Notes: generated from the sequence alone by a model not told the origin. 59,705 nt of DNA, filler included, from Globobulimina sp. (GCA_003354225.1; 9 parts of 9 records of this genome joined end to end with filler, not necessarily neighbours in it); one strand, 5' to 3'; counted from the first letter of the whole stretch, positions 579 through 53,173 are shown. Numbers and translations are program-made.

Positions 579-3500
579 TCACATTACATTTGGTTTAATT
601 GTTTGATACGGATTATTTGCTCTTACACCAGGCATTTCTATACTGTTTCTAAGACGATTACCAATAGGAACCTGTTTCCAATTCTCATCAATATGTCCCG
701 CTGCTTTATAATTTGGAAATCGATAAAATGGGGAAATCAAACAAAATAATAATAATATTAATATTGGTAACAAAAAAACAATACTTGTAATAACATGCGA
801 GAACTGATGATTTTTAATAAATATTACTAAAATCGTCAATGACAAACAAACAGTTTCCAAGACATTGATATAATAATTAATAAATGGCAGCATTCTGTCA
901 TTTACGATTAAACAAAATATTAAAAATGAAATAATTATAAACTCTGCGTATTGCCGATTTGCAAAAGATAAAACAGAAAATAATGCAATAACTGTTCGAC
1001 GGAATAAAATAAAAAATTCAAAATACCAATACTTATTTTTATATGATTTAGTTAAAGAATTTAAATATGAATCTTTAGAGCCTCTTAATTTGTCATCCAT
1101 TTTATATAAATTTATAAAAAATACCATAAAAATAAGTACAATTAAACATAATGCGATTAATGCAACAAACCATGAAACATCATAACAAGAAGAATATGCA
1201 TAATAAAAATGAACATTAATATCATCATTTATTTGTCGACATGATAAAATTTTAAAAATAACTCCTAAGATTTGACCCATACACAATAATAAAATAACTA
1301 TAAATGCTTTAAAAAAATTTGGTGGAGCTTTATTTTTTTTATTTTTATTACAAACGGGACAAAGTGATAATAAATAATATATAACCAAACAAACCATCGA
1401 TAGAGTGGACACTGTTAAACTTAATAAAATTTTATTTTGAGCATTGAGATTTTTCAAAAAGCATAAACCAGAGAATGATGAATTTGAATTTGATGAAGAT
1501 ATAAAGGATAAATTAAATAATTCAATGAATGATAATAAATAAACTGACACATTTATACCGTTATTATGTGTTAATATCATTGATATGGATTGGAAATAAT
1601 ATGAGATCGGATTAAAAATCATTATTAGAATCACTCTGTAAAACGAAGTTTTAGATTTATTGCCTTTTTTAATACAAAAACATGTTTTTGTATTGGTTTC
1701 TTTTTTTGCGTGGTTTGTGTTGTGTGATGTATGTAATATAAATATTGATATTATCATCGCAAATGCCAATGGGAATAATGTGCGTTCATAATAATTTCTG
1801 TCACACTTTCCACATTGTACAGCACCAATTAATTCAGTATATCCATGTAAACATTTTGAACATAAATAACTGTTTTTGTCTCTGCCTTTTGCGCACAATG
1901 TTGCTTCAGAATCATTATAATAATTACATCCATTCATACTGTTACAACATCGATACGGAGGACACAAACTGGATATTATTGATTGATTCTTATCATTAAT
2001 ATCTATATCAATCCAATAATTAAAACTTACCAAAATATCATTTTTTCCATTACACGAAATTGCATTTTCAGTATCAATATTATCTGCATTACAATCGATG
2101 CATTGATTAATGGTTGGAAGCAAAGAAAAATAACCATTGGAACATATTTCACATTGCTTTATTGTGCCGCTTTTACCATAACCGGATGGACAGGGAATAA
2201 CTGTAAAATTTACATCATTTACATTAAATTCATTATTTAATACAACTGTGTCGATGGTATAATAATTTCCAACATTGTCCATATTAATTGTTTGGATATA
2301 AATTCCTTGTTCACAAATCTCACAATAACCAGTCGCATCAATATGTATTGATAATTGTATGTATAATTCCTCTGATTCTAATTCAATATTAATTGCTTGA
2401 TCATAATCACTGATTTTATTTCCATATTCGTCTTGAATGAAATAATTAATATGCAATTTGCCTCCGGCATAATATCCATTCTCTATTATTTCTAAATATA
2501 CATTAATTGGGGTCCAGTGCTTAGAAAATGAAGATCTGGAATCTGATAATGATATTATCGGATTTGAATCTGTTGAATTATACATTGCTGCGCAATCAAC
2601 ATATATTTGTTTGATGACTAATGCATTAATATTAGAATTAGAATCTTCTGTCTTATTAATCATTTCATAGCAATTTAAATCACAATGATCGCCATATGAT
2701 ATATCTATATTATCAGCTAACAAAATATCAAACATTAGTATTGTTCCAGAAGTTAATACAATGGCATTGTATATTCCTTTTATATCATTGACAGATAAAA
2801 ACCTGATTTGTTGTGAAGCAAAAACACTCTGTGATGAATCCATAGAAATCAATGGCACATCATTTTGTATGTTAACATCTGTTGCAATAAAATAATCGAT
2901 GTCTCTGTTTGTTTGAATACACACATCATCGAAATCTCTCATTCCTCCATTCCAGCATTGTGAGTCTGTGCTATTTATAATATCAATTAATTTATGTCTA
3001 GAACAGGATGTGATGCTTCCTGATGATAAATGTACTGAATAGCCATAAATTATATTCGCCGACATACAATTAATATTTTGATTTTTCATTATAATGAAAG
3101 GAATATCATTAACTAATGATTGCCCCGCAAATGTATTCCCAATCAATTGTACTCGCGTATTAACATCAAAAAATAATAACCCATCTGTATAAAATAGACT
3201 TTTTGGGTCAAAATTGTCTAAAAAAAGACCAAGTGTTTCTTTTAAATCACCCAAAATGGAGTCAATTTCTGCAGCAAAATTTATTCCATTTTTCAACAAT
3301 GCTAAACCAGCAATATTAATAACAGGAGAAATTAAATTAAATGAAAATGTATTGTTTGTTAATGTGGCTTGGTACGGCTCAGACGATGACTGATATGAGG
3401 CAGAAAGCAATGCATTCCATGCTCTGGGACTAATAACCACAAATCCCCACGGATCATAAAATGAAAAATTACAATTTTTAATAACTGTTTCTTGGGCACT

Positions 3501-4217
3501 AATAAAGATCGGAGGTTGCAGAGCGGCGGACTCAGCGATTGAAAGTAATGAGCCATAAAAGGATCCGATATCAATAAGTTGAACATTATCAAAATATAAA
3601 TATACAACGCCGGGAGATGCAGAAACTACAGAATAAACCTGTTTAACTATTGCATTGGAAATAAAATTGGAGCCTCCATTTAAAAAAAATGATAGAAAGC
3701 CACCAAAAATATCTGCATTATTTATTTCCATCAAACCGCCGCCTTCAATGGCATCATTTCCATCGTTTCTGAACCAAACCCCCGTCACTAAAGCCTTTGC
3801 ATCAAAGCGACAGAAATTATTATTTGCTGAACATTGTGTGCCATGATAATATTGTGTATAATATGACTCTACATTATTGATAAAAGCATTTCCTTTGTTT
3901 CGAAGCAATACAGCATGAACACCGCTTCCTGCCACCATGAAATTGTCGAGATTTAATATCGCAGCGTTATAAATCAACGAATATTTATTTAATCTGAACT
4001 CATAATAAAAGTTACACAGCACAGAGTCGTCCAAACAGAGCTGATTTGAAAACAAACGCATTTCGTCATAACTTATGTCGTTTGAAACTTTAAAATTTGT
4101 AATATTAACCACACCATAATTTTCTATAAATTGTATAGGTACAGAACATGACATTTCTGCCACTGTGTAATAAGAACCATAAGTTTGTACGTGATCCTTC
4201 CAACAATTTGCAGTCAC
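579..4217 (-). CDS. Large membrane receptor-like protein: Asn-rich ectodomain, Cys-rich GCC2/GCC3-TNFR-like segment, multi-pass (~7 TM) C-terminus; 5' end uncertain
   Basis: 1212-aa ORF containing CPSGYG...CEICSNGYFS...CIDC and CAKGR...LCSKCLHGY Cys repeats, followed by several hydrophobic helices. It starts at GTG with no signal peptide, so it is probably 5'-incomplete. Confidence 0.75.
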   Translation of the reverse strand: MTANCWKDHVQTYGSYYTVAEMSCSVPIQFIENYGVVNITNFKVSNDISYDEMRLFSNQLCLDDSVLCNFYYEFRLNKYSLIYNAAILNLDNFMVAGSGVHAVLLRNKGNAFINNVESYYTQYYHGTQCSANNNFCRFDAKALVTGVWFRNDGNDAIEGGGLMEINNADIFGGFLSFFLNGGSNFISNAIVKQVYSVVSASPGVVYLYFDNVQLIDIGSFYGSLLSIAESAALQPPIFISAQETVIKNCNFSFYDPWGFVVISPRAWNALLSASYQSSSEPYQATLTNNTFSFNLISPVINIAGLALLKNGINFAAEIDSILGDLKETLGLFLDNFDPKSLFYTDGLLFFDVNTRVQLIGNTFAGQSLVNDIPFIIMKNQNINCMSANIIYGYSVHLSSGSITSCSRHKLIDIINSTDSQCWNGGMRDFDDVCIQTNRDIDYFIATDVNIQNDVPLISMDSSQSVFASQQIRFLSVNDIKGIYNAIVLTSGTILMFDILLADNIDISYGDHCDLNCYEMINKTEDSNSNINALVIKQIYVDCAAMYNSTDSNPIISLSDSRSSFSKHWTPINVYLEIIENGYYAGGKLHINYFIQDEYGNKISDYDQAINIELESEELYIQLSIHIDATGYCEICEQGIYIQTINMDNVGNYYTIDTVVLNNEFNVNDVNFTVIPCPSGYGKSGTIKQCEICSNGYFSLLPTINQCIDCNADNIDTENAISCNGKNDILVSFNYWIDIDINDKNQSIISSLCPPYRCCNSMNGCNYYNDSEATLCAKGRDKNSYLCSKCLHGYTELIGAVQCGKCDRNYYERTLFPLAFAMIISIFILHTSHNTNHAKKETNTKTCFCIKKGNKSKTSFYRVILIMIFNPISYYFQSISMILTHNNGINVSVYLLSFIELFNLSFISSSNSNSSFSGLCFLKNLNAQNKILLSLTVSTLSMVCLVIYYLLSLCPVCNKNKKNKAPPNFFKAFIVILLLCMGQILGVIFKILSCRQINDDINVHFYYAYSSCYDVSWFVALIALCLIVLIFMVFFINLYKMDDKLRGSKDSYLNSLTKSYKNKYWYFEFFILFRRTVIALFSVLSFANRQYAEFIIISFLIFCLIVNDRMLPFINYYINVLETVCLSLTILVIFIKNHQFSHVITSIVFLLPILILLLFCLISPFYRFPNYKAAGHIDENWKQVPIGNRLRNSIEMPGVRANNPYQTIKPNVM

Positions 4218-4445
4218 ATTATATTTATAATCAAATTTGATTACGATGGCAATCGATATATTATAACAGTAATGTGATTTGATTATAAATAATGAAATTG
4301 GATAGATTATGAATAATCACACTGCACAGATTTGAAATGTATACAAAAAGTGTATACTTAAATAATTAATCTGAACGATAACAATCTGAAAACCACACTC
4401 TAAAAAAATAAAACCAAAACAGATTGAAACGGAATAAAAAGATAA

Positions 4446-6567: not shown

Positions 6568-6667
6568 NNNNNNNNNNNNNNNNNNNNNNNNNNNNNNNNN
6601 NNNNNNNNNNNTTAATTAATTAANNNNNNNNNNNNNNNNNNNNNNNNNNNNNNNNNNNNNNNNNNNN
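6568..6667. other. Artificial contig spacer
   Basis: 44N + TTAATTAATTAA + 44N. Confidence 0.99.
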
Positions 6668-7237
6668 CAGTTGGAACAACAACCGATATTCAACCAGCAA
6701 CAACGAACGGTGCATGGTAATTGATATGATGAAGCTTGGAATGGTTTGGAAGATGTGGAACGATCGCTGCTTTCTCAAGCTTGTTCAGGCACTTTCGGTG
6801 CTGGTGGTGTTGACATGCCTGACTTTCCAGATACCTATCCATGCTCAAACGGAGGTAACAAATTCAATTTTTCTAAAAAACATAGAGATAACAAAGGGAA
6901 ATTATTTAGATTATTTCTAAAAATTGAGAGAAGACCAAGAAAAGCAGAGATTACAGTTTAGTTTCTACATATTGCTAGTCTTGTGTGCTGTACAATGTAC
7001 AGCCTCAAACTGCAATGATGCAGTAGCACTTATGTTGTAATTTCTATCAATTGCTGGTGTGGTGTGTTGTTCCATGAACAACCCCCAAACTGCAATGAGG
7101 TATGAGTAGTATAAAATTTCGTACAACTTTGTGTGTACTAATGATGATGTACCTTACTGGTTAAATCCAGTATAAATACCTGACCATACATATTATTGTC
7201 TAAATATCACAGCGAGGAAAGCATTCATTCATAGGAA

Positions 7238-10200
7238 ATGATGATGGACAACTCAGATTCTGAAAATGTAAGTATTGTTTGAACGATTGAGAATGTTGCC
7301 ATATAATTCCACTTTTAGTCTAACAGCAGTGGCGAGGAAAGTACTGGAGATGACGAATTCCTTAGAAATTCGGGCGGGTAAGTGCTATCTATCTACTAGT
7401 ATACCCAGAATAAGTAATGTTTTTTGCAGATACAATCATTTCAAAGTTGAATCGGAACCACTACTGAAGCGTGCAAAAATTCTTGCTAATCAGATGGGTG
7501 GGGCAAAAGTTGGTGATAGCACTGATGGTGATACAACAGACGATGAGAAAGAAAAGCAGGAACGAGAGTCAAGTATGATAAATCGTCACTTGGGTTTGAT
7601 CCAAGATTATACATTTGTTACAAAAACTAATCCCAATCATATTTACGTTAATTTTAATTTACTCGAGCTAGAACTAAATACTGTAACTGTAATGGAGCAT
7701 TTGCGTACAATTTTGAAAATATATAGTAATCCAAACACCCAAATTTTCGTAAATCCTCAACTCGGCTTCATTCTCTATAACCAAACCGGAAATGAAATCG
7801 TTAAATATTTCTATCCAAGTGCCAATACTTCCTTATTCTCCCAGTTTAAACTTTTGTCGACAAAAACTTTAAAACAATTAGAATCCGACGTAGGTAAATT
7901 GTATCTATTAAATTGGCCTTTTCATGCCAAAATGGAAGGTGCTGAAAAGAGCGATTTAGGCTTCACATTGATTACTAATATTTGCTACAGTATAATTATT
8001 GAATAATTATAGCAACGATCAATAAAATGCAAATTTTAATGGATTTTGATACTGTAATGACCAATATCAGTGAAAAAATCAGTACTAGTCTTTTCTGCTG
8101 CATTGTGAAGTACCTTGATCGGGAAGTGGGCTTACTAAATCGAAAAGATCGTTTACTACTAGAAAAGGCATTAGATTCGATGGTTTTGGCAATTAACGAT
8201 TTGCTCCCATCCGATATTCAGAATCTTAGAGCTTTTGGCATCATAAGGCCTACAATTGAAAATTTTAAAATACTTTGTAAACTTGAAAAGTACTTTAAAA
8301 TTGGTATACGTATACGAAATGATGACGGTTTTGAAGTTAGATCTCCAGGTCAAAGCGATTTAAATACCCAAATATGGGACCATCATTTCTACGATAATAC
8401 CATGAATGTAATCTATACCCTAAAGGGACATCAGCGATATGTATTGATACTGAATGAAGATGCTTACTTTGGTCATCATCGATGCAATTATTGCAACAAT
8501 TTGTATGACAACCACAGTGAATTAAATCACCATCTTAATCGTTATGGATGTCCGGCCGAAAAGCATCTGGACACCACTGGAGAACTCCCAGGTTTCAATG
8601 ACCAACTCGGAATTCAATATGTATGCAAGCAAGGAATATGGCGCCCAAAAATGAACATCATACAAGTACTTACAGTATTGATGATGCTAACATATTATTA
8701 GCCAAGTTATTTGCAGAAATTAGAGGAATTGGACATTTTATTACTGCCGCGTCATAAAGCTCCAGATGGTGTGATGTATTCAAAAATGTTCTGCGTGTTC
8801 GATATTGGTTAGTTTTTTATTGTATTAATTACACTTGCTTTTTTTTGATTATTGTTGTCTATAGAATCATTTTTGGAAGGTATAGATGATAATACAGCAC
8901 ACTATAGATACTCTATGGAACACAAAGCTGCTATGGTAATCATTTCATATTCTGACAAAAAATATGCAAATTTTTGTCATTGCTAGATTGCTTACACCAA
9001 TTCTTTCGATTGGCAAACCAAAGTTTTTGTTTCTGACCCAAAGGAACCTTCCAAGTTTGTCTGTGAATTCATACATTCTCTACTAGAATGTCAACAAACT
9101 ATGAGCAACAATTTACGACAAGAAATTCAAATATATTTCGATGAGATCGAAAGACGAATAATGCATGAAAAGCGCGATTATTGGTTGAAGCGTTACAACT
9201 CACTACTCAAAACTCTGAATACATATGTAGAAACTATACCTATTTTAGGCTGGAACTCTGGCAAATATGACATCCCAGTTTTGAGAACAATGGGGTTTTT
9301 TTATTACTTAGACAATCTCGATGGTCCCATCAGTGCCTTAAAGAAAACGGGGAGCCGTTATTTGAGTGTCAATTCAAAACATTTAGTTTTTTTAGATTGG
9401 ATTTGCTTTCAAGGGTCTAAATTACCACTTAGAGACTATTTGACCAAATTTCAAAATGCTTCAAACCAGAAAGCTATGGAGAAAGAATATTTTCCATATG
9501 GGTAAGGTCGAGCACTCACAGGGGCCGCTGCAAGACACGCTTGCGTGTCTTGCAGGGGAAGAGATAGTCAAGCGCGCGCCCACACAACACCGAAAAAAGC
9601 AAGCCTGGCTTACATTCTTATTAAATAGAATCAAATATGTGGCCTGGCCTCAAATTATTGTTTCTATTTCAGCTGCCTAATATCTCATTCATCTTTGCAT
9701 CAACCATTACCAACACTTGATAAATTCTGGGATGATCTACACAAACGAAATCAATTGGCTTCAACTGAATGGCTAAAGTATGAGAAATTGTGCAGCAAGC
9801 ATAATCATCAGCAGGCCCTGGCTATGCTCAAACTGGACAAACCACCCGAAAGCCCTGAAGAAAAATATCAGATTGTCAAGAATTACTGGATAAGTAAAGG
9901 TTTCAAAACAGTACTGGACATTTTGGTTAGTTACATTAAAGCCGATTGCCTACCATTAGCGAGAGCCATTCTCCAGTCCTTGACTTTATACCATTCATAT
10001 AATATCGACATTCTTTGTGACTATGTTAGCTTACCATCTTTTGTGCTGCATTTGGCTATAAGCTTCATACCTAATAAGAAAGATTGCTTTTTCGTTTTGT
10101 TGCAGTGGGATGAGAGAGAGATGTTGCAAAAGTGTTTGCTCGGAGGACCTTCAATAATATTTACTCGATATGTCAAAGTAGGTGAATCACGGCTGAGACC

Positions 10201-12529
10201 TCATGATTACCCTCATTCACCAATGGCAAAGAAAATCATCGGATTTGACCAGGTATGTTTCTGCATGACAGGTAAAGGTATATTTATGTTTAAACACATT
10301 TCAGAATAATCAATATGGTAAGTTGTTCAGACGAAAGTACACGGTAACATGCTTTATGTGCTATAGGCGGTGCATTAAAAAAGGAATCATTCATTGGATA
10401 TTACTATTTGAGATGTGTTGACCAAGCTTTTGATCCAAAACTGTTAGGAGCAAAACGGCATAATGAAATATTGTATGTTGAATATTTTGCATACAAGAAT
10501 GGGCTGTCGAATGTACGGCACATTGCTTCCGGTCACGGCATTGGCCAGAAATGGATTAAAATCTCTTCTGGTCTGATTCAAGCCGATGGCTACTGTTCCA
10601 TAACCGAACCTGATGGGACTTGGCGCCGGCTTATAATTGAATATCACGAGGAAGGTAAGGGAAGCTGCTGAGCCGCTGTTCTATTTATCACAATATGATC
10701 TACCAGCAGTTATGCTTATTTACTCAAGGGTTCTCACATGGATGGTGTGAAGCTTGTCAAACAGATGAGAGAAATTCGAAAATTTTCCATCCCACTGGAA
10801 AAACCATGTTGCATCAGTACAACCGAACCATGGAGAGAATGGAAGAAATCAAAAATGCTGGTTTCGAATTACACTTCATATGGGAATGTCAATTTGAAAA
10901 GATGAAGAGAGAGAAGGAATTTGCTTTCTTTGAAAGATATCATTTTCATTTGGGACCTTTCATCAAGCAACGCTTTTTGACTGAACAAGAAGCACTTCAG
11001 CAAATATTTACAGGCGATATCAATGGATTCGTAGAATTATCGTGCAGAGTAGATCCCAGTGAGAGGTGGTACTTTTGTGACTTTCCAGCCATTTTCAAGG
11101 TGTGCTACTCTTTTTCCTTATTGTAACTATAATTGATTGATTGCTTTTAAGCATATGGAAATCGATAGATCGATGCTCTACGAACCAATGTTGAGTTACG
11201 CGAAAAAGTACAATCTGTTACAACATAAACAAAAGCTGCTTGTTTCATCATTTCACGGCGATAATGTGGTTTTCTCTACAACCTACATCAGATTTCTGCA
11301 AGGCCTTGGTGTGTCATTCTTTGGTGTCAAGAAAATTATACAATTTCGATCAGATCCATGCCTTGCGCCGTACATTGACAAATTTACGGAAAACAGATTG
11401 AAAGGTGACACTACAAATAATCCGTTATTGAGCGAGTGGAGTAAATCAGGTTTGTTTAATTATTATGTTGTTTTAACGATGTATTTTGTGACTGTTATGT
11501 TTTCTCTCAGCGATCAATAACAGTTTTGGTTATTCAATCATGAATCAAAAGAAAAGAACAGTCACAAAATACAAGAATTGGAAACAGTTTCGAAAAATTC
11601 TAATGAATAGATCACCAGTGATTGATATGTTTGAAGCAGGGCTACCCGATACTCCAACTGAATTAGTCGAAGTAACTACCAGGCCAAAAAAGATAGTATT
11701 CAATACACCCATACAAATTGGAACAGAAGTTTTATCCAGAGGTAGTGGCTAAAATTTCCTAAAAACTTTACTTTTGTCATTGACTCTTGCAGGAAAAGTG
11801 GAGTTGCTCAAATTTGTTTATGAAGTGATCAAGCCAAATCTAAAACCAGATCACTATGAGTTTCTGCTTACTGATACCGATAGTATGTATTGTTTTAGTT
11901 CACGATTTTTATTTACTATGAGATGGATTTGTAGGTGTATATATGGCCATTGCAGCGGAATCACTGGCTGATTGTTTGAAAGAAGGTCGTGTGGATGAAT
12001 GGAAACGAATTCAATATGAGCGATTTGTAGATGAAACGACGGAAGCTCGAAAATTAGCCACCAAACGAACTCCCTTATACTGGTATTGCTTTCTCTCAAA
12101 ACACCAATGCATATAGAATTAGGAAGTATAATATTTTAGGCATGTAGAACGAGAATCTAAAGGAACACTGGTTGGTGCAGTGATATTTCCGGTAAATTTC
12201 TGTAGCTTTGTTTTTCGATTCAATTTTTATAGATTGCCCTCTCTTCCAAATTGTACATTATCACTGATGAGTCTGATCAAGCAATAAAGACAAGCGCTAA
12301 GGGAATACAAAAACAAAAGAACCAAAATTTGATGAGTAAAGCTCTGTTTGAGAGTCTGCTACATGACAGGGAAATGGATGGATTACCCTTGGTTGTTAAT
12401 ACAGGTTTTATGCAAAAAAATGAAAAAATGAAAACATATACTTTGAACAAGCATAGTCTACATAGCTTATATATCAAACGAATTGTTCGTGATTGCAGAG
12501 TCCATACAAAAACCTATTCAGAATATTAA
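7238..12529 (+). CDS. Polinton/adintovirus-type protein-primed DNA polymerase B, 17 exons, ~1441 aa
   Basis: GT-AG introns at 7268-7318, 7378-7429, 7990-8012, 8666-8716, 8808-8864, 8936-8986, 9502-9672, 10253-10304, 10318-10366, 10655-10728, 11100-11151, 11450-11510, 11742-11792, 11883-11934, 12083-12139 and 12171-12232 leave a 4326-nt open frame. It contains ExoI VFDIES, ExoII GWNSGKYD, KEYFPY, ExoIII YIKAD, GGPSIIFTR, motif A GFDQNNQYG, motif B KSAINNSFG, motif C TDTDS, IALSSKLY, SAKGI and YIKR. Confidence 0.9.
9528..9555. repeat. Perfect 13-bp GC-rich hairpin inside polB intron 7
   Basis: CTGCAAGACACGC-TT-GCGTGTCTTGCAG. Confidence 0.9.
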
Positions 12530-12632
12530 ACGAATTGTTTGCTTGTTTGTTCATTTCAGAACATGTGGCTTTGGAATGAAGTGAACGATTTTATTTGGGT
12601 GTATATACAGTTAATCAAAGCTGAACAATAAA

Positions 12633-13145
12633 TCAGGTTAGTTTATCTTTTCTAAATTTGAGAAATATACGTCGCAAATTAGGATCATTAAGCTGGCTTG
12701 TGCCAAATGGTGTATCGCTTAACATTTCTAGAAATTCTTTCACTCCTTCGACCATATTGTCGTCAGTAATTCCATGTTGATTAGGTCCTAATTGTTTAGT
12801 TACTATAGCCAATATATCTCTCAAATTAGAACATTTAACTCTAATTCGAGCATTTTTAACCGGTACATATTTTAAGATATGTCCTGTATTGGCATCATAA
12901 CCAAATAATTCGCCTTTTAAAAGCAACTTGATCATGTCAGTTGCTAATTCTCTGTTTCTTGCTGGTAGGGAATTGATCACTTCAGTAAATGCAGCGTTCA
13001 TTTCTTGAACTTTTGGCTTTGTTTCTTCATGTAGTACTGATGGTTGAGCTGAATTTACTTTTTGACTTTTCAACTGTTCCATTTCGTTTAACAAATCATC
13101 CAACTCTAATTTATTTATAGCTACATGTTCAGAAAAATTATTCAT
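12633..13145 (-). CDS. Hypothetical protein resembling a conserved uncharacterised Polinton/adintovirus ORF
   Basis: 170 aa with the pattern INSLP.RNRE.A..MIKLL...YDANTGHI...SNLRDIL...EGVKEFLEML..TP...LND. It is convergent with polB. The family resemblance is from recall. Confidence 0.5.
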   Translation of the reverse strand: MNNFSEHVAINKLELDDLLNEMEQLKSQKVNSAQPSVLHEETKPKVQEMNAAFTEVINSLPARNRELATDMIKLLLKGELFGYDANTGHILKYVPVKNARIRVKCSNLRDILAIVTKQLGPNQHGITDDNMVEGVKEFLEMLSDTPFGTSQLNDPNLRRIFLKFRKDKLT

Positions 13146-13224
13146 AATTTAGCAAAATTTCTATCAATGGTTTTAGTTCTTTCAAATGAATTCGCAAATA
13201 ATTAGCTGGTCTTTTGACTTTCTT

Positions 13225-13324
13225 NNNNNNNNNNNNNNNNNNNNNNNNNNNNNNNNNNNNNNNNNNNNTTAATTAATTAANNNNNNNNNNNNNNNNNNNN
13301 NNNNNNNNNNNNNNNNNNNNNNNN
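13225..13324. other. Artificial contig spacer
   Basis: 44N + TTAATTAATTAA + 44N. Confidence 0.99.
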
Positions 13325-19876: not shown

Positions 19877-19976
19877 NNNNNNNNNNNNNNNNNNNNNNNN
19901 NNNNNNNNNNNNNNNNNNNNTTAATTAATTAANNNNNNNNNNNNNNNNNNNNNNNNNNNNNNNNNNNNNNNNNNNN
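19877..19976. other. Artificial contig spacer
   Basis: 44N + TTAATTAATTAA + 44N. Confidence 0.99.
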
Positions 19977-26526: not shown

Positions 26527-26626
26527 NNNNNNNNNNNNNNNNNNNNNNNNNNNNNNNNNNNNNNNNNNNNTTAATTAATTAANNNNNNNNNNNNNNNNNN
26601 NNNNNNNNNNNNNNNNNNNNNNNNNN
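26527..26626. other. Artificial contig spacer
   Basis: 44N + TTAATTAATTAA + 44N. Confidence 0.99.
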
Positions 26627-33168: not shown

Positions 33169-33268
33169 NNNNNNNNNNNNNNNNNNNNNNNNNNNNNNNN
33201 NNNNNNNNNNNNTTAATTAATTAANNNNNNNNNNNNNNNNNNNNNNNNNNNNNNNNNNNNNNNNNNNN
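33169..33268. other. Artificial contig spacer
   Basis: 44N + TTAATTAATTAA + 44N. Confidence 0.99.
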
Positions 33269-36308: not shown

Positions 36309-37568
36309 CTATATCAATATCACATCCGGCGCCTGCAAACTGGACTGAAACTTCTTCAGAAAATCCGAGGACACCGTGGCTTTCATATGAGGCAAAGCTT
36401 TTACCAAATCACACTCTGCGCCATCCATATCAACCTGTTCACCACTCACCGGCGAGCCATACAAGTATGTATCAGCCAAACCAATCAACTCATACTGAGT
36501 ATGAATAATATAGCGATAGATGGCCGCCGTCAACTTCCAACGCCCAGCAAAAGCTATCAGGCTCGTTGGCACTCCATTCTGTAACAACGTGGTTGCAAAT
36601 CCTTTCCGGAGGCCATGGAAACGATAACGCTCCGCCTCCAGAAACCCCATTGCATGCACTACTTTGCTCCACGTCTTCTTGATACGCGTCAGGGTACAGT
36701 CAACCCCCTGCACCTGAAACAAGTACCTATTAAGTAATTTATATTTGTATATGCGCCTCAATTCACGTCGCTGTAAATGATATAGATGATATAACAAAAT
36801 CGCAGGATCGATACGCTTATTGGTACGCCCCACACGCAAGAAAACATCGCTTCCGAGTCTCGCGGATTTCGAATGTCGCAATCTGATGCGAACATGATGC
36901 AAATTATCATACGCACGAGAATATGCATTGCTTGTATACAATGTGCGTGCACCATCACGTTGCCAGAACATGGTCAAATCGCGGAGGTACACACCATATC
37001 CTTTGTATGCTTTATTGCCATTTTGGTAGCACTCTGCCCCCCTCAAACCTAACACACCTACAAACAGGAGAGACAACGCAAACATGTACCATACCAATCT
37101 CTGCTTATCATGCCATATCTGGGCGAAAGACAACCATTGTTTTGCGAGTGCGATTTCATGTGTATTCATAACCAAACCATAATATACCTTAAACGTCATG
37201 ATATATTGTACAATCTGCAGGAGAAGCCTCGCAGTAACGGGTAGGGTATTACTTCCCTTCCCAGGATGCCTCTTTCGGACATATTTAATTAATGCCATCA
37301 ACGCCGGGTTGGTGGACCACGACTGCTGTAAGCCACAAAGCTGCGCAACAAAATCCAGGGATCTTAACTTATTTCGCACCGTCTCATAGACATTTTTCCT
37401 TGTTCGAATAAAACAACAATCAATAACATATATCTGCAAAATAACGTCACTGAGCGGCAAATCCCAGACCATCGCATCCGGAATTTTCAGACGCCTCATC
37501 GTCCGCCAGAACTCACACCAGTTCTTAGCATATGTGTCCTCTGAGGTAGCTTTCACCCCACCATTCAA
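36309..37568 (-). CDS. Tyrosine recombinase (DIRS-type)
   Basis: LGLRGAE, RLRHSKS, FHGLRKGFAT, GRWK and IYRY give the R-K-HxxR-W-Y set. The frame is open to ~37640, where a TTTCTGCTACAG acceptor lies. Confidence 0.92.
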   Translation of the reverse strand: MNGGVKATSEDTYAKNWCEFWRTMRRLKIPDAMVWDLPLSDVILQIYVIDCCFIRTRKNVYETVRNKLRSLDFVAQLCGLQQSWSTNPALMALIKYVRKRHPGKGSNTLPVTARLLLQIVQYIMTFKVYYGLVMNTHEIALAKQWLSFAQIWHDKQRLVWYMFALSLLFVGVLGLRGAECYQNGNKAYKGYGVYLRDLTMFWQRDGARTLYTSNAYSRAYDNLHHVRIRLRHSKSARLGSDVFLRVGRTNKRIDPAILLYHLYHLQRRELRRIYKYKLLNRYLFQVQGVDCTLTRIKKTWSKVVHAMGFLEAERYRFHGLRKGFATTLLQNGVPTSLIAFAGRWKLTAAIYRYIIHTQYELIGLADTYLYGSPVSGEQVDMDGAECDLVKALPHMKATVSSDFLKKFQSSLQAPDVILI

Positions 37569-37815
37569 AGTAGAATACAGAATTTGTTTGTATTCCGGAG
37601 ATACATAATCAGATAACGGATTGTTAAATTGTTTACATCTGACTGTAGCAGAAAAACAAAGTTAGTAAGGTACCCTAAAAAGAAAAAAGATGTATAAAAA
37701 CGACAAAGGCATGGCACCTGCCGACAAACTATAAGTTGTGTGATTGCAAAGATGCAAACAAAGTCAAAGTCAAAGCATGCAATAATCTGAAAATGGAACG
37801 CTGCAGAAACGAAAA

Positions 37816-39808
37816 TCACCATTGATGAATGTCTGGAATGCATGGAACCGCAGAAAAAGGCTGCAATGACCAGTTATTATCTAAGCATGTTTGCCGCGCC
37901 AAAGCATTAAAGTCACGTAAATGAAAACGCGACGCCATATCCGGTAATTTATTAATCTTTGTATTAACATAATTGACATATAATTTGAGTTCTTTCTCGA
38001 CTGCAAACATACAGATCCATCGCAGCGCAGATTGCAAGAACTCATCACTCGCATTCTTATTAATCAAAACAGACTCAACATGCTTGCTATCTGTCTTTAA
38101 TAGGATCTTCGTTCTCGGCGTCAATAAATGTCGAAACGTGTGCAAGCCCGTAATGATAGCAATGATTTCGAAGTGGGCAATGGCGAAATCAGCTTCATAA
38201 TCCTCATCATGCGTGGCAAATGTATGAGTGTATTGGGATGGAATGGAGGCAGCAATCCAATGGCCTTTGTACCAAACACCTATTGCAGGATTCCATCCAT
38301 TCTCACGAGAGCCATTAGTCGCACCATCAAAGTGCATCTCATCCGTTGGCATGACTTGATCGACTATGTCAAAAATGGAGATGCTGGACACTTGATCAAT
38401 ATATTTAATCCACCACCGGATATCCTTGAGCTCCCAAGGGGTCAATGGTATGACCACATCTTTCCGGCCATATGCATCAATGTACTTATACATAGATTTC
38501 CGGAGTCGGCGCAAAAACGCTTTTCCCGGCCAACCCATATTTGATACATCCTGCAATTTGCTCACCATTGACTCATAAATATGCAAAATCAGTGATTCAT
38601 GAAAGACAGCCGCATATAGCACCTGCTTGATCTTCCAAATGCGATTCTCACTGAGCGAAATCCGCATGGTCTGCGTATTGATGATGAAACCAATCATCTC
38701 CAGCAACCTAACCGGACCGCGCCGTTTCTTGGGTAACTCATCCAACCCAATCAAGTGGAGATATTCACAGAAAGTATTAAATAATTTCGACGCATAACTA
38801 AATACCGGCGGCAAAAAGATAATGTAATCATCAATATAGTTATTTATGATTACCTTCAATATCTGCTTACTATTTGCTTTTAAAATGAACAGCCAATCAA
38901 AAAATTGGCAATCTCTAAACAACTGCAGATCAGCCGTCGTCAAGATAGGTGACAACCGATCCTCAGTACATCGAATCAAACGCGCTCCATTGCATAGGAT
39001 TGTATCCGCAAAAGGAACCAACGCCGACATATAATGAGAGGATAACCATTTGATAACCAATTGTTTATCCCATTTAAAAATTAATTTATTATCATAGACA
39101 AAAGCCCTATCAACGATAGGTTCGTGGTTCACCTCTTCACGAAACTTTCCATAGAAGTACTGCACATTCGCATTCTCGACGGCCGCATTAATATCAGACA
39201 ACAAATCCGAACCATTACATTTTATATTAAAATAACGGCAGACCAGCTGACCCAAATCCTGCGTATGTTTGGAGCCAGTTCTGGTGCCCCAGAAGTCATA
39301 AAAATCCACCATTGTACATCCATCAAATTTATAGCCACTGTACTGCGGCTCCGTTATTGCCAACGGAACCTGACGAAAAGCCGTTTTCAAGTCAGTCTTC
39401 GCCAAATAGAAGCCTCTGCCCCATAACAGATAATAAATGATGCAGTACGACGCCAGTTTGCGAAGATTCATCAATGCGATATGGGCCTTCTCATCCGGTG
39501 TCAACATGTTTATTGACGGATTGCGAGCGGATCCTTTCGTACCGTCCCGTATTACGCGCCAATCAATTATCTCACCCGTGTCAGGGTCCACTGTTTTTGG
39601 ACGGGTAAAGAGGGGAACATAGCCATTCGCTTTTGTCAGCCAGCTGACGGTTTTACCAATACAGAGATCCTTGGTAAGACACTGCGCAATCTCAATTTTC
39701 GATTTCCGGCCTCCAGCCCCATCAGCATATGTGAACTGATTTAATTGTTTGTTTTCAGGATTATGTATATTCAATTTCCAACCAAAACGCAAATAATGTT
39801 TATTAATT
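37816..39808 (-). CDS. Reverse transcriptase-RNase H of the DIRS type, 5'-partial, with a SAM-like insertion
   Basis: RT motifs: WRVIRD, KTDLKTAFRQVP, FWGTRTG, NYIDD and MIGF. RNase H motifs: FDGA, IAHFE, KTDS and NKLPDMASR. Confidence 0.92.
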
Positions 39809-39908
39809 NNNNNNNNNNNNNNNNNNNNNNNNNNNNNNNNNNNNNNNNNNNNTTAATTAATTAANNNNNNNNNNNNNNNNNNNNNNNNNNNNNNNNNNNN
39901 NNNNNNNN
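39809..39908. other. Artificial contig spacer
   Basis: 44N + TTAATTAATTAA + 44N. Confidence 0.99.
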
Positions 39909-40188: not shown

Positions 40189-40606
40189 CGCATACATTGA
40201 TTCCTAGCATTTTCATTTTCAATCAATTCAACGCTCTCGATACAGACTATATTTTTATAGCGAGCTTTTAATTTAATTTTATTAGTATTTTTATTTGCAA
40301 AATTTAATATGTTTTGCATTCTTTTGCTTTATTATTTTGTTGCTTTATTATTTTTTATTTTTTTTTTAATTGTTTTTAATGTTTTTTACCTTTTCTCTTT
40401 TTCATAATATTATTATATTTTTTGGCTGTTGCAGTTGTACATTTCCTCAAAATTTGTTGCGACCTGTATAGGCATAGCAAACCATATATGTTTGTGATCC
40501 AAAAACGTTCGTTTTTGATTAACAACAAAAATAAATCTTTCTGATATTGCTGTAATTCTCACTAGTAATCTGATTCAAAACCTTCTCCACAGTCCACACT
40601 TCAATC

Positions 40607-41857
40607 ATGGCACACCAACATTGCTCACAAAATGCAGATGAGCTATTAGCACAATCATTAGCCATGCAAGATTTGATGGACTTCCAACAAAACACCACAA
40701 CATTGCAAACAAAGAGCAACAATACAAACAACTCACAACATCAACACATCAGATTACCAAACACATCAAACACCTCAAACATATCAAACACCACAAACCC
40801 AAAGCCGCCACCAAAAGTATTAAATGAACAATGCCTAACCTCCATATTAAACAACTACATCTCACGTAAGTCCCTTATCAGTTTAGGACCAGACATATCA
40901 TCGACAAACCCGGACATTTACAATCTGTTCTTCAAGTACAATTATTTGTATTTCGACAACAAACTGTCAGGCTGTGTAGTAAAATGGAGCAAACGCATGA
41001 CATTATGTGCCGGCTTATGTTGCTACGAAGGTGGCGGTGGGCTATGTTCAATAAAATTATCGTCGCCGCTGCTCCAATACCGATCGACAAAGGAAATGAT
41101 AGAAACACTTATTCATGAGATGATCCATGCGTATTTATTTGTGACTTTTAATAATAAGGATCGGGAGTCGCATGGTCAGAGATTTAAAACCTTTATGAAT
41201 GTCATCAATTATGCCTCGCATTTAGACATTTCAATATACCACACCTTCCATGATGAGGTGGATCAGTGCAGGACGCATATATGGAAATGCAATGGTGTCT
41301 GTCAACAGAAGTCTCCTTACTTTGGAGTGGTGAAAAGAAGTATGAATCGGGCGCCGGGACCAAATGATCGATGGTGGAGCCAACATGCGAGGAATTGTGG
41401 TGGGAGTTACACCAAAATATCGGAGCCGAAGGCGTTTACGGAGAAACAAAGAAAAAAAAAGGAGAGACTGGAAAGGAAAAAGGAGAGGGAGGAAAAGAAA
41501 AAGTTGAAGGCAGAAATGAAGAAAAATAATAGTAATGCGAATGGGAAGGGGACGGAGAGAAAGAAGGGGCAGAAAAGAAAGAGGGAGAAGGATAAAAGTG
41601 TGCGGACTTTGGTGGATATGTTTGGTAATGGTAAGGGTGGTGATGAAGCATTGAGAAAGAGGCAGAAAATTGAGGAGAAAATTGAGGAGAATAATAGTGA
41701 TTTAGAGATATTGGAGAATACGGATAATAATTATAATAAGAATCGGAATGGTAATAATGGTAATAATGGGAATGCATTGAAAGTAAAGTGTCCAATTTGT
41801 CAAGAGATGTTGGTCGAGAATATGATAAATTTACATTTAGATGATTGTTTGTCGTGA
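40607..41857 (+). CDS. SPRTN: SprT-domain DNA-dependent metalloprotease Spartan
   Basis: WSKRMTLCAG, ETLIHEMIHAY (HExxH), SHG..F, YHTFHDEVD, VKRSMNRAPGPND.WW..H...CGG.Y.K, and a C-terminal UBZ CPIC...INLHLDDCL. Confidence 0.96.
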   Translation: MAHQHCSQNADELLAQSLAMQDLMDFQQNTTTLQTKSNNTNNSQHQHIRLPNTSNTSNISNTTNPKPPPKVLNEQCLTSILNNYISRKSLISLGPDISSTNPDIYNLFFKYNYLYFDNKLSGCVVKWSKRMTLCAGLCCYEGGGGLCSIKLSSPLLQYRSTKEMIETLIHEMIHAYLFVTFNNKDRESHGQRFKTFMNVINYASHLDISIYHTFHDEVDQCRTHIWKCNGVCQQKSPYFGVVKRSMNRAPGPNDRWWSQHARNCGGSYTKISEPKAFTEKQRKKKERLERKKEREEKKKLKAEMKKNNSNANGKGTERKKGQKRKREKDKSVRTLVDMFGNGKGGDEALRKRQKIEEKIEENNSDLEILENTDNNYNKNRNGNNGNNGNALKVKCPICQEMLVENMINLHLDDCLS

Positions 41858-46441: not shown

Positions 46442-46541
46442 NNNNNNNNNNNNNNNNNNNNNNNNNNNNNNNNNNNNNNNNNNNNTTAATTAATTAANNN
46501 NNNNNNNNNNNNNNNNNNNNNNNNNNNNNNNNNNNNNNNNN
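46442..46541. other. Artificial contig spacer
   Basis: 44N + TTAATTAATTAA + 44N. Confidence 0.99.
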
Positions 46542-46745
46542 GCCGCTGTTGAAGCCGCCGAGTCCATCGGGTCCATGCATGCTCAGGGCCCGCTCTGGCA
46601 TGTTTGCGTTTTCTGTAGCGATCCCAATTCGTGGGGTTCGCGGTGGGTCGAGATAGGTGACAATCGCCTGAAGGTTTGTTGTTGCCTGTTCAGGCGAGAC
46701 ATTACCCCCGGTTGCGGTTACAGCAAGTACATCAAGGCGCGGGAT
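46542..46745 (-). CDS. Bacterial nucleoside hydrolase (IU-NH family) internal fragment
   Basis: PRLDVLAVTATGGNVSPEQATTNL...PRIG...HGPDGLG, GC-rich. Confidence 0.8.
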
Positions 46746-47927
46746 GAACGGGTGGCCGCCCTTAAAGAAGCTAAGCGCCAGCAGGATGAAGAAATTTGCC
46801 GCGTTGAGGCGTTTATCAATCGGTTTCGCTATCAGGCAAATAAGGCTTCGCAGGTCCAGAGCCGGGTCAAACAGTTGGAGAAGATTGAACGGATCTCTTT
46901 GCCTCCAGGGCGAAAAAAGATTGCTTTTACTTTTCCGCAACCCCCCAAGAGCGGAAGAATGGTCCTGGAGCTTTTCAAAGCGTCACAGCAGTATGGTGAG
47001 CTGCTGGTTCTGAATCAAGTGGATGTGCAGATCGAGCAAGGAGAGCGGGTAGCGCTGGTTGGTCCCAATGGGGCGGGAAAGTCGACTTTGATGCGATTGT
47101 TAGCGGGGGTGGAAAAATCTGTCGCCGGGGAACGAAAAGAAGGGCATAATCTGCATCTGGCTTATTTCGCCCAGGACCAGGCCCGTGAATTGAATTCGGC
47201 GCGGAATGTCTTCGACGAACTCTGTGCCGATGCCCCGGTGCCGATGGTGCCGAAACTGCGCAATATCCTAGGGGCGTTCCTGTTCTCCGGGGATGAGGTC
47301 GAAAAACCGGTCAATGTGCTCTCCGGCGGTGAACGCAATCGACTGGCTCTGGCCAAGTTGCTGTTGCGTCCGGCCAACCTGTTGTTGCTTGATGAACCGA
47401 CCAATCATCTGGATCTGCAATCGAAACAGGTGCTGCTCGATTCACTAAAGGGATACCAGGGTACCATCGTCTTTGTTTCCCATGATCGCTATTTTGTTGA
47501 TGAACTGGCAACTCGGGTTCTGGAAGTCGGTCGTGGAAAAGTCGAATCCTATCAGGGCAATTACGAAGACTTTCTGGGCGAAAAACAGCGCTTTGGCGAT
47601 CTCAGTCACAGCGCGCAACGGGTCGAACAGCATCTCCAGCAGCCGACTGGTGTGGCCGTCCCCGAAAAAGAACTGCGCTTGCAAGGGCATGCTGATCGTA
47701 AAGAGCAGAAGCGGCGCGAACAGAAACGGCTGCGAGATTTGACGGCCATTGAAACCCGGATCGAAATCCTGGAAACCAGACTGGCAGAGTTGGAACAGCG
47801 GATGGCAGAACCTGAGCTATACCAGGACCAGGTCCACTGGCGGCAGGTCAGCCAGGAGCATGCCGCCCTGAAAGAAGAGTTGGCGCAGGCCTACCAACAA
47901 TGGGAAGGATTGCAGGAATCGGCATGA
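46716..47927 (+). CDS. Bacterial ABC-F ribosome-associated ATPase, C-terminal half only
   Basis: Linker GYSKY...FINRFRYQANKASQVQSRVK, then GPNGAGKST, LSGGE, LDEPTNHLD, VSHDRYF and a coiled-coil tail. GC-rich and intronless, with the first ABC domain absent. Confidence 0.93.
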   Translation, partial: GYSKYIKARDERVAALKEAKRQQDEEICRVEAFINRFRYQANKASQVQSRVKQLEKIERISLPPGRKKIAFTFPQPPKSGRMVLELFKASQQYGELLVLNQVDVQIEQGERVALVGPNGAGKSTLMRLLAGVEKSVAGERKEGHNLHLAYFAQDQARELNSARNVFDELCADAPVPMVPKLRNILGAFLFSGDEVEKPVNVLSGGERNRLALAKLLLRPANLLLLDEPTNHLDLQSKQVLLDSLKGYQGTIVFVSHDRYFVDELATRVLEVGRGKVESYQGNYEDFLGEKQRFGDLSHSAQRVEQHLQQPTGVAVPEKELRLQGHADRKEQKRREQKRLRDLTAIETRIEILETRLAELEQRMAEPELYQDQVHWRQVSQEHAALKEELAQAYQQWEGLQESA

Positions 47928-47949
47928 TCGAAAACCCGCCATAGGTTGC

Positions 47950-48408
47950 GGATGTTGCTTTCATGCAACCAAAGCAATCAATAACTTCACCAATGCCATC
48001 ATTATAAACTGTCAATGTCCTTAATAGCACCATAAGTTCTTTGATTTTGAATACATGCTCGATTTTATTAAATCGGATCGATTTTATATTCTCTGAAAAT
48101 AAAAATGAATTGTTGTTGTTATTAATTATGTATAATTTGCCACTCATATCATCATAAGTAACCTCGATATTATTCTCAACACAGCCCGCTAACCAGGCTC
48201 CTTTCCAGAATTCGGGTGATTCCAATGCTATTTTGTCAATTAATATTCTACCACTTAATGACATACAATTTGCGTCTTGTTTTAACTCTTCATCGTTTTT
48301 GTGTTGTTCTGCATTCTCGACCAATTCTTCATCATTTTTTAACTTCCAAAAAGGAAGTCCTGCTGGGCCCGGAATACGTCGTTTCTTCTCTGCGGATTTA
48401 CAAGACAT
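47950..48408 (-). CDS. HROB: HROB/MCM8IP-like OB-fold protein, 3'-truncated at the junction with bacterial DNA
   Basis: RRIPGPAG and KIKELMVLLRTL...IDCFGCMKAT resemble HROB (RRFPGPAG; KV..M.V.IKSL...DPTGEM.GT). The similarity ends abruptly at the GC shift. Confidence 0.65.
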
Positions 48409-48434
48409 GTTTGAGTCTGACAAGGTAAAGTTTT

Positions 48435-49037
48435 TTAAGTTTTTTTATAAAGCATTTGTTGTATTAATTTGTCGTTAAACGTTTCTTTGATCAGTTCGAA
48501 ATCAAAACTGGTTTCAAATGAATATAATGCTTTCTTTATGGTTTCCAAAGGCTCAAAATATATTGACACAACTTTTTGATCCTTTACACCACATTTTTTT
48601 ACTGTGTCACTGTATTCGTTTGGCAGTGTTGTGCAATATATTACAAGTCCTTTTGCCGGAATTTGGTTATTATAAATCTTGCAAATGTTTATTGTTTCCA
48701 ATATCGATGATCTAGCACTCAAGACACGCACTCTACTCTTCAAGTTGTGGATATACATTAAATCTGTCCGCAAATTTTTAATGTAGTTTGCTATTTCCGC
48801 GTGTGGTTCAATATGAATAGAAATGCAAGTTCCATGTCCTCCTATCATATTCAACAATGGCTTGATCTTTTTATACAAATTCCATTCTTGTTTGTTATAA
48901 TAAAATGATAAACAAATCCATTTTATTGGTCCGGGTATTGAATAACCAGCATGCGGATTTTCCAATTGATGGATATATCCTAACACCAGATATGTGACAG
49001 AATCGTCAACTGATTGCAATTGCTTTGATAGCAACAT
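48435..49037 (-). CDS. Stand-alone divergent eRF1 N-terminal domain protein
   Basis: GHGTCISI...HNLKSRV...IPAKGLVIYC...VSIYFEP...LYSFETSF aligns with eRF1 domain 1. The ORF stops before any GGQ domain. Confidence 0.8.
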   Translation of the reverse strand: MLLSKQLQSVDDSVTYLVLGYIHQLENPHAGYSIPGPIKWICLSFYYNKQEWNLYKKIKPLLNMIGGHGTCISIHIEPHAEIANYIKNLRTDLMYIHNLKSRVRVLSARSSILETINICKIYNNQIPAKGLVIYCTTLPNEYSDTVKKCGVKDQKVVSIYFEPLETIKKALYSFETSFDFELIKETFNDKLIQQMLYKKT

Positions 49038-49085
49038 TGTTTCAAAATACTTACAAAGTAAAAAAACAGCAAAAACATCTGCGGC

Positions 49086-53073: not shown

Positions 53074-53173
53074 NNNNNNNNNNNNNNNNNNNNNNNNNNN
53101 NNNNNNNNNNNNNNNNNTTAATTAATTAANNNNNNNNNNNNNNNNNNNNNNNNNNNNNNNNNNNNNNNNNNNN
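53074..53173. other. Artificial contig spacer
   Basis: 44N + TTAATTAATTAA + 44N. Confidence 0.99.

Follow-up and report, generated by a model that had tools for sequence, protein, structure and literature searches.

A protein-primed DNA polymerase gene of the Polinton/adintovirus kind divided by 16 intron-like segments in a Globobulimina contig

A 59.7-kb stretch of DNA from Globobulimina sp. (GCA_003354225.1; hereafter the window, meaning the whole 59,705 nucleotides (nt) analysed) carries at positions 7238-12529 of the + strand a gene that homologue profiles and a predicted structure support as a family-B DNA polymerase with protein priming (pPolB) of the Polinton/adintovirus kind with a Vsr-like nuclease between polymerase motifs A and B. 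The gene is divided by 16 GT-AG segments, and their removal joins the exonuclease and polymerase motifs in one uninterrupted frame. We tentatively read it as still serving, as replicase, an endogenous Polinton-type element of low copy number that has persisted in the genome long enough to take up host introns; that it has become a host gene is also appreciably possible. Polinton/Maverick and adintovirus polymerases are regarded as compact viral genes with essentially no introns, and large surveys find them by calling open reading frames (ORFs); a split member such as this one would be invisible to such screens.

Results

Removal of 16 GT-AG segments restores a single polymerase frame

The + strand from 7272 to 12529 is tiled by ~13 stop-to-stop ORFs of only 36-244 amino acids (aa). 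A splice model was built by reading the sequence and by a dynamic-programming search, and was then refined against a profile of 73 uninterrupted homologues; for three ambiguous junctions, 18 variants were scored against the family profile and the best was kept (intron 3, 7990-8012; intron 4, 8666-8716; intron 16, 12171-12232). When the 16 GT-AG segments were taken out of 7238-12529, the remaining 4326 nt encoded 1441 aa and a stop with zero internal stops, which reproduced exactly the stop-free frame of 1442 codons that the original prediction, made from the sequence alone, had described. The segments measure, in order, 51, 52, 23, 51, 57, 51, 171, 52, 49, 74, 52, 61, 51, 52, 57 and 62 nt (966 nt in sum), and eight of the 16 are 51-52 nt long, the number that had been predicted. 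Keeping any one segment in produced a stop or a frameshift (16/16). Across the junctions, marked here by slashes, the catalytic motifs FCVFDI/ESF (ExoI), IIGFDQ/NNQY/GGAL (motif A, by way of the 13-nt micro-exon 10305-10317), SKS/AINNSFG (motif B) and LLTDTD/SVY (motif C) were rebuilt, in agreement with the junctions named beforehand (VFDI/ES, GFDQ/NNQY/G, KS/AINNSFG and DTD/S).

Shuffled versions of the region served as a chance control. No stop-free GT-AG path existed in 5 of 15 shuffles, and in the remaining 10 a path took 17-20 introns, which together removed a mean of 3380 of the 5292 nt (64%) and left a coding fraction of 0.36; the minimum for a stop-free GT-AG path through the real region was 11 introns and 1077 nt. 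By this control, the splice structure is far from chance. A first model, with a 74-nt intron 3, a 41-nt intron 16 and a product of 1431 aa, was replaced because profile homology prefers the 1441-aa version; for intron 16 the donor can be GTTGGT (62 nt, ~8 bits better by the family profile) or GTAAAT (41 nt).

The spliced product is colinear with uninterrupted homologues and keeps their motifs

A full HMMER search of 1.84 billion representatives with exon 8 returned 431 proteins at E<=1e-3, and 73 of the kept matches, each of at least 700 aa and encoded by a single ORF, formed the family profile. The spliced product matched this profile in one domain spanning residues 73-1438 of 1441 (796 bits, E 3.7e-243; HMMER). 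Against the homologue P0004 (1157 aa), the best blastp match of the model with 30% identity over 1096 aa, a single domain covered query residues 344-1428 (E 2e-146). Junctions 4-16 were each covered by 20-70 of the 73 homologues and junctions 1-3 by none in the same test, and junctions 6, 7, 8, 12, 13 and 14 were crossed without gaps in 12/12 aligned homologues. That relatives normally lack introns, as the original prediction held, agrees with these homologues being uninterrupted ORFs.

Conservation was examined column by column in 26 homologues. The model keeps 62 of the 67 columns with a conservation of at least 90%, all exonuclease (Exo) and polymerase (Pol) motifs included, and departs from the family in five (N477S, C936E, P1045D, P1057A and K1317H). 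The patterns tested were DxE for ExoI, Nx2-3[FY]D for ExoII and Yx3D for ExoIII, and Dx4-5Y for motif A, a Kx3NSxYG-like pattern for motif B, DTD for motif C, and KxY. The exonuclease motifs fall on invariant family columns (ExoI D446/E448, ExoII N561/Y565/D566 and ExoIII Y730/D734, in the numbering of the first model), and the polymerase motifs A (D835/Y840), B (K1158/N1162/G1166), C (D1264-T-D1266-S) and KxY (K1339) are present.

Homologue profiles and a predicted fold point to a Polinton/adintovirus-type polymerase with a Vsr-like insert

The Pfam family DNA_pol_B_2 was matched by three of eight homologues (P0004 38.8, P0011 33.1 and P0024 46.9 bits; cut-off 25.8) and by 10 of 26 in a second homologue set, several of which also matched C2H2 fingers. 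A language-model look-up of exon 7 likewise led to DNA_pol_B_2 clusters, the nearest of which is commonest in Mollusca. Pfam searches with single exons or ORFs matched a polymerase family in 0/10 cases and a word-based homologue search with exon 7 against longer proteins gave no match, which bears out the claim that ORF-based screens would miss this gene; a sequence search of the PDB with exon 7 also gave no match.

The structure of P0004 was predicted from a 36-sequence alignment with a local-confidence score (pLDDT) of 85.5 and a predicted template-modelling score (pTM) of 0.81. The best nine PDB matches of this model were all phi29 polymerase (E 1.3e-11 to 1.7e-9; template-modelling score (TM) on target 0.61-0.69), and its best matches among viral models (BFVD) were polymerases that bear the labels densovirus (metagenomic), Adintovirus sp., Drosophila-associated adintovirus 3, bidensovirus, MELD virus and adenovirus (E 8.7e-35 to 2.7e-20). 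The family matches of the homologues, together with a modelled fold nearest to phi29 and adintovirus-type polymerases, uphold the assignment of the gene as a Polinton/adintovirus-type pPolB.

The profile of the 26 homologues also matched E. coli Vsr (1vsr_A, 1odg_A and 1cw0_A; E 1.8-2.4e-5) at profile positions 812-882, which places the match between Pol motifs A and B, and C2H2 finger matches lay at profile positions 285-308. P0011 additionally matched DUF559 with 24.7 bits (cut-off 20.6). In the window gene the Vsr-like insert keeps the ADGY.., ..SHG.. and IWEC motifs and has one conserved Cys replaced; it would serve as an accessory nuclease and may be weakened in this gene. The ~440-aa N-terminal extension we take, by analogy with linear plasmids, to be a candidate priming/terminal-protein module.

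Intron positions are common to relatives and a second copy shows a synonymous excess

A FastTree phylogeny was built from the model and the long homologues, with 73 of 74 rows kept as tips. In this tree the model was nested among uninterrupted ORFs, the clades of 3, 7 and 11 tips around it having supports of 0.98, 0.98 and 0.96, and this nesting marks the introns as derived. The closer relatives of the gene are known as exon-sized fragments only, the relatives' contigs measuring 749-4442 nt, and in the exon-8 search only P0002 and P0003 reached more than 50% identity. P0002 (207 aa, 58% identical) tracks exon 8, and its homology ends right after ..IIGFDQ, where a V and a stop follow. P0161 (166 aa, 76% identical, 110/145) tracks exon 7, and its homology ends right after ..EYFPY; it lies on a 1215-nt contig, the same size as is recorded for P0003, an exon-8 fragment with 66% identity. 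By the break points of P0002 and P0161, introns 8 and 7 are therefore common to lineages at 58-76% protein identity.

An introner burst was considered as the source of the introns and rejected because they are not copies of one another, the 13 short ones being no more alike than shuffled sequences (-5.41 vs -5.57 +/- 0.53). Intron 7 (9502-9672) is three times longer than the others, has a GC content (GC) of 0.48 and contains a perfect 12-bp hairpin with the arms CUGCAAGACACG and CGUGUCUUGCAG. Rfam searches of the contig and of intron 7 gave no match at E<=1, and the fold z-score of intron 7 was only -1.76; possibly this intron is a small insertion. Positions 11480-11501 in intron 12 and 11552-11573 in exon 13 form an inverted repeat of 22 nt with 91% complementarity, which could be chance or a splice-regulating stem.

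Among the three public runs of the sample, X1 alone holds the gene stretch, as DNA-like contigs with the introns included; X2 gave nothing, and X3 gave two 19-24-nt pieces from an unrelated contig. The 24 contig pieces in X1 comprise 15 at >=99%, 3 at 95-99% and 6 at 90-95% identity. A second copy in X1 differs from the model at 37 exonic positions among 40 listed differences; 28 are at third codon positions, and 27 codons changed synonymously vs 9 non-synonymously, counts that refer to these 40 differences, 12 more being outside the list. In introns 6 and 14 of this copy the donor is kept and the alignment is then lost (loose ends 8958 and 11885). Judged by the substitution pattern, both copies are, and have for a long time been, under purifying selection. 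Of the copy number and selection check that the original prediction had proposed, the low-copy look and the synonymous excess were thus obtained, the latter for the listed differences only.

The gene lies on a 6.5-kb contig with one convergent neighbour

The coordinates of the gene and of the features around it are collected in Table 1.

Table 1. Features of the pPolB gene and its contig (positions of the whole window; slashes mark splice junctions)
Feature	Position	Strand	Remarks
Gene-carrying contig	6668-13224		bounded on both sides by N44-TTAATTAATTAA-N44 linkers
TATA-like box TATAAATA	7171-7178	+	60 nt upstream of ATG; putative function
pPolB gene, ATG 7238 to TAA	7238-12529	+	17 exons, 16 GT-AG segments; coding sequence 4326 nt, 1441 aa
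Exon 1	7238-7267	+	30 nt
Intron 1	7268-7318	+	51 nt, GTAAGT..TTTTAG, phase 0
Exon 2	7319-7377	+	59 nt
Intron 2	7378-7429	+	52 nt, GTAAGT..TTGCAG, phase 2
Exon 3	7430-7989	+	560 nt; family-specific N-terminal domain; final 17 codons (7939-7989) hold conserved ..LITNICY..
Segment 3	7990-8012	+	23 nt, GTATAA..TTATAG, phase 1
Exon 4	8013-8665	+	653 nt; C2H2-type zinc finger ~8483-8552
Intron 4	8666-8716	+	51 nt, GTACTT..TTGCAG, phase 0; CTAAC 26 nt from 3' end
Exon 5	8717-8807	+	91 nt; C-terminal ..FCVFDI, first half of ExoI
Intron 5	8808-8864	+	57 nt, GTTAGT..CTATAG, phase 1; interrupts ExoI (FDI/ES)
Exon 6	8865-8935	+	71 nt
Intron 6	8936-8986	+	51 nt, GTAATC..TGCTAG
Exon 7	8987-9501	+	515 nt; ExoII (GWNSGKYD), ..KEYFPY motif
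Intron 7	9502-9672	+	171 nt, GC 0.48, perfect 12-bp hairpin; position common to P0161
Exon 8	9673-10252	+	580 nt; ExoIII (YIKAD), GGPSIIF, start of motif A (IIGFDQ)
Intron 8	10253-10304	+	52 nt, GTATGT..TTTCAG, phase 0; position common to P0002
Exon 9	10305-10317	+	13-nt micro-exon, NNQY of motif A
Intron 9	10318-10366	+	49 nt, GTAAGT..CTATAG
Exon 10	10367-10654	+	288 nt; end of motif A, first half of Vsr-like insert (ADGYC 10582-10596)
Intron 10	10655-10728	+	74 nt, GTAAGG..CTCAAG; cuts Vsr-like domain where the family-conserved Cys is absent here
Exon 11	10729-11099	+	371 nt; second half of Vsr-like insert (SHGWCEAC; IWECQF 10878-10895)
Intron 11	11100-11151	+	52 nt, GTGTGC..TTTAAG
Exon 12	11152-11449	+	298 nt
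Intron 12	11450-11510	+	61 nt; interrupts motif B (KS/AINNSFG)
Exon 13	11511-11741	+	231 nt; motif B
Intron 13	11742-11792	+	51 nt
Exon 14	11793-11882	+	90 nt; motif C (LLTDTD)
Intron 14	11883-11934	+	52 nt, GTATGT..TTGTAG
Exon 15	11935-12082	+	148 nt
Intron 15	12083-12139	+	57 nt
Exon 16	12140-12170	+	31 nt (52 nt with donor 12192)
Intron 16	12171-12232	+	62 nt, GTTGGT donor; alternative 12192-12232, 41 nt
Exon 17	12233-12529	+	297 nt; KxY (KLY 12248-12256), KG motif, TAA 12527-12529
AATAAA	12627-12632	+	98 nt past the stop; putative function
Convergent neighbour gene	12636-13142	-	169 aa, intron-free

The neighbour on the - strand is convergent with the pPolB gene, and the 3' regions of the two overlap. 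Its 169-aa product belongs to no known family; it is conserved in four unnamed proteins, three of them full-length relatives (84, 71 and 55% identity) and the fourth partial (63%). A tblastn search with the polymerase homologues found no match to the family on any other window contig, and a metagenome scan with the homologue P0017 gave four loci that matched solely its nuclease or zinc-finger part, none of them matching the model.

The window itself is a chain of several contigs and not a single locus. Eight pairs of 44-N runs enclose the linker TTAATTAATTAA, which has stops in six frames, at 6568-6667, 13225-13324, 19877-19976, 26527-26626, 33169-33268, 39809-39908, 46442-46541 and 53074-53173, and the pieces, ordered by decreasing size, measure 6567, 6557, 6552, 6550, 6542, 6540, 6533 and 6532 nt. 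Because the window is a chain of length-sorted ~6.5-kb contigs, neighbouring pieces have no biological adjacency. The original prediction had contrasted the gene with host genes in this window that have fewer introns; those genes are on other contigs and offer no same-locus comparison. The contig of the pPolB gene stops 570 nt upstream and ~700 nt downstream of it, and its GC of 0.34-0.39 is inside the range of the other window contigs.

Several features were observed on the other contigs. The single contig 46542-53073 holds a truncated bacterial-type ABC-F ATPase (EttA/Uup-like, 46542-47927; GC 0.54 at 47001-48000) together with an intron-free ORF of 1337 aa for the ciliary protein CFAP65 (49062-53072); either a ciliated eukaryote received the ATPase gene by horizontal transfer or the contig is chimeric. 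A DIRS-like retroelement at 36309-39807 (-) has a tyrosine-recombinase ORF (Phage_integrase, E 1.7e-6) and an adjoining ORF with a weak RT_RNaseH match (E 2.3e-4, under the Pfam cut-off). An uninterrupted 1245-aa ORF at 579-4316 (-) encodes a protein that is rich in Cys, has a hydrophobic, multi-pass C-terminal half and matches no Pfam family, and a single 427-aa ORF at 40574-41857 (+) encodes a SprT/Spartan-like protease (SprT-like E 1.1e-28; SPRTN_ZBD E 3.8e-26).

Discussion

A replicase that may still belong to an element

We lean towards an element-borne replicase because the replicase architecture is kept in full, down to the N-terminal domain. On this proposal, host RNA polymerase II would transcribe the gene from the TATA promoter, and splicing would take 15-16 short GT-AG introns out of the transcript, so that a 1441-aa enzyme could be made. 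This product combines the family-specific N-terminal domain and a C2H2 finger with a 3'-5' exonuclease (ExoI-III) and with the polymerase motifs A, B, C and KxY. Equipped for proofreading, it would use a protein primer to replicate linear double-stranded DNA. The introns would have been acquired after the polymerase entered the host lineage, since its relatives are uninterrupted ORFs, and, as the element would be copied at the DNA level, new copies would inherit them.

Several observations weigh against this proposal. Segment 3 (7990-8012) is just 23 nt long, compared with 49-171 nt in the other fifteen, and when it is left unspliced the frame meets a stop at 8004-8006; the in-frame alternatives that use the upstream donors 7939 (7939-8012, 74 nt) and 7894 (7894-8012, 119 nt) delete a family-conserved motif and lose 9-12 bits. 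The acceptor of intron 10 is weak (AAG), and the product there is without one conserved Cys of the Vsr-like domain. RNA runs with this stretch were looked for among the public runs and none was listed. Capsid, ATPase, protease and integrase genes are all absent from the 6.5-kb contig, which ends 570 nt and ~700 nt from the gene; Pfam searches of 20 large window ORFs on other contigs found no capsid, ATPase, protease or integrase; no inverted repeat of at least 30 nt occurs within 6668-13224, the element ends, if any, being beyond the contig; and scans of IMG/VR viral contigs gave no relative. The search for element genes that the original prediction had proposed was thus carried out on the window by Pfam and tblastn, and yielded none of these genes and no terminal inverted repeat on the contig. 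Finally, the terminal branch of the model is long (1.19 vs a median of 0.67) and the copy number looks low, with only three identity classes of contig pieces (15/3/6), both of which fit a domesticated gene as well.

Domestication as an appreciable alternative

It is quite possible that a Polinton-derived pPolB has turned into a low-copy host gene with a cellular role, its element context lost and host-type introns gained in the course of a long vertical descent. Sixteen introns in 4.3 kb is a very high density for a mobile-element gene, and intron positions are common to relatives at 58-76% identity. The synonymous excess is strong between old copies whose introns no longer align, the three identity classes of pieces indicate a low copy number, and close relatives are few, with P0002 and P0003 alone more than 50% identical among the 1.84 billion representatives. 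The adjoining convergent small gene is intron-free, conserved at 55-84% and host-like, although it may itself be an element gene. The model also has a long terminal branch and has lost one conserved Cys of the nuclease insert. Domestication accounts equally well for the low copy number, the extreme density of introns, the long branch and the host-like character of the neighbour. Against it, the gene retains every exonuclease and polymerase motif as well as the element-type N-terminal domain, which an element replicase needs and which goes beyond most co-opted fragments, and no report of a domesticated pPolB was found in the literature searched. A Polinton replicase retained for a cellular task long enough to gain 15-16 host introns, a larger number than in the other genes seen in this assembly, and with both its proofreading and polymerase sites intact, might be the first host-domesticated protein-primed DNA polymerase, a prospect that we consider real but short of probable.

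The exon 3/4 boundary and the origin of the contig

Alternatively, the copy may have lost its function only lately through a break between exons 3 and 4 (7990-8012), where the open GT-AG paths would be fortuitous. The homology-preferred crossing of this boundary is possible only through the 23-nt segment, which is far below the other fifteen in length and doubtful as a spliceosomal intron, so that the boundary may be a genuine break. The frame-1 ORF has its stop at 8004-8006, and frame-1 homology in five homologues reaches 7982-7997 (..LITNICYSI vs ..MLTNINWSI, ..VTNITFYV and others); conserved coding sequence therefore extends to a few codons before that stop. Recent inactivation is nevertheless unlikely: all 15 junctions apart from this one are clean, the model retains 62 of 67 conserved columns and has no further stop or shift, the synonymous excess indicates constraint through most of the divergence, and a 74-nt in-frame GT-AG alternative exists. 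An independent Logan contig from the same data is identical in letters and ungapped over 7990-8012, and the boundary is therefore not an obvious assembly slip. The description of the gene as apparently intact in the original prediction hinges on the 23-nt segment being spliced or on use of the 74-nt alternative intron.

A foreign contig, derived from another eukaryote that contaminated the sample or from a virus free in it, or an assembly artefact is very improbable: the window does consist of short, low-depth contigs chained without a physical link between the pPolB contig and the others, and one of the three runs of the sample only holds the contig, but the spliceosomal-type introns and the convergent cellular-looking neighbour point to a nuclear eukaryotic locus, the GC is within the range of the other contigs, and such an origin would change the host and not the nature of the gene.

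Implications

If the gene is still element-borne, as we tentatively prefer, some endogenous Polinton lineages would persist long enough to be "eukaryotised", which bears on their persistence and on the avoidance of silencing; the introns might then be adaptive, making the transcript host-like and letting it escape silencing aimed at intronless foreign genes. If it is domesticated, the host would have co-opted a protein-primed polymerase.

Comparison with known systems

One class of Polinton polymerases is pPolB2, whose subgroup from molluscs and marine nematodes has a VSR endonuclease domain (Jeong et al. 2023, 10.1101/2023.08.22.554363, PMC10748475). In its motifs the window gene resembles these VSR-bearing pPolB2: it is a family-B polymerase of the protein-primed type that has Exo I-III and Pol A, B, C and KxY along with a Vsr-like nuclease domain, in which one conserved Cys is missing. 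Whereas the pPolB2 of Jeong et al. were gathered as integrase-linked Polinton genes, the window gene has 16 intron-like segments and no visible element context. The parts of their text drawn on say nothing of spliceosomal introns in pPolB2, and no report of a multi-intron pPolB was found in the literature searched; their supplementary tables may list intron-bearing copies.

In fold, the polymerases of adintovirus, bidnavirus and MELD virus (BFVD models) are the best viral matches of P0004 (E 8.7e-35 to 4.7e-26, TM 0.40-0.54 on the query); these are compact viral genes with only 13-15% sequence identity to it. The P0004 model shares with phi29 DNA polymerase, its best match among solved structures (PDB 1xhx, 2pyj and 2ex3; E 1.3e-11, TM 0.64-0.69 on the target), the exonuclease and the palm, fingers and thumb architecture; to the 572 aa of phi29 polymerase, the family of the window gene adds ~440 N-terminal residues, a zinc finger and the nuclease insert.

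With regard to introns, Barreat & Katzourakis 2021 (PMC8097293) report the eight core genes of intact vertebrate Mavericks to be intronless and cite Kapitonov & Jurka 2006 to the same effect; Mavericks belong to the same element class as the window gene, which has 16 segments where the Maverick genes have none. A precedent for introns in a mobile-element gene comes from the Ginger1 transposases, which have 1-4 introns in the elements and 6-8 in the host genes Gin-1/Gin-2 (Bao et al. 2010, PMC2836005). Those introns are canonical GT-AG introns with positions conserved between element and host-gene copies, and Gin-1/Gin-2 derive from an integrase-type transposase, whereas the window gene is a polymerase.

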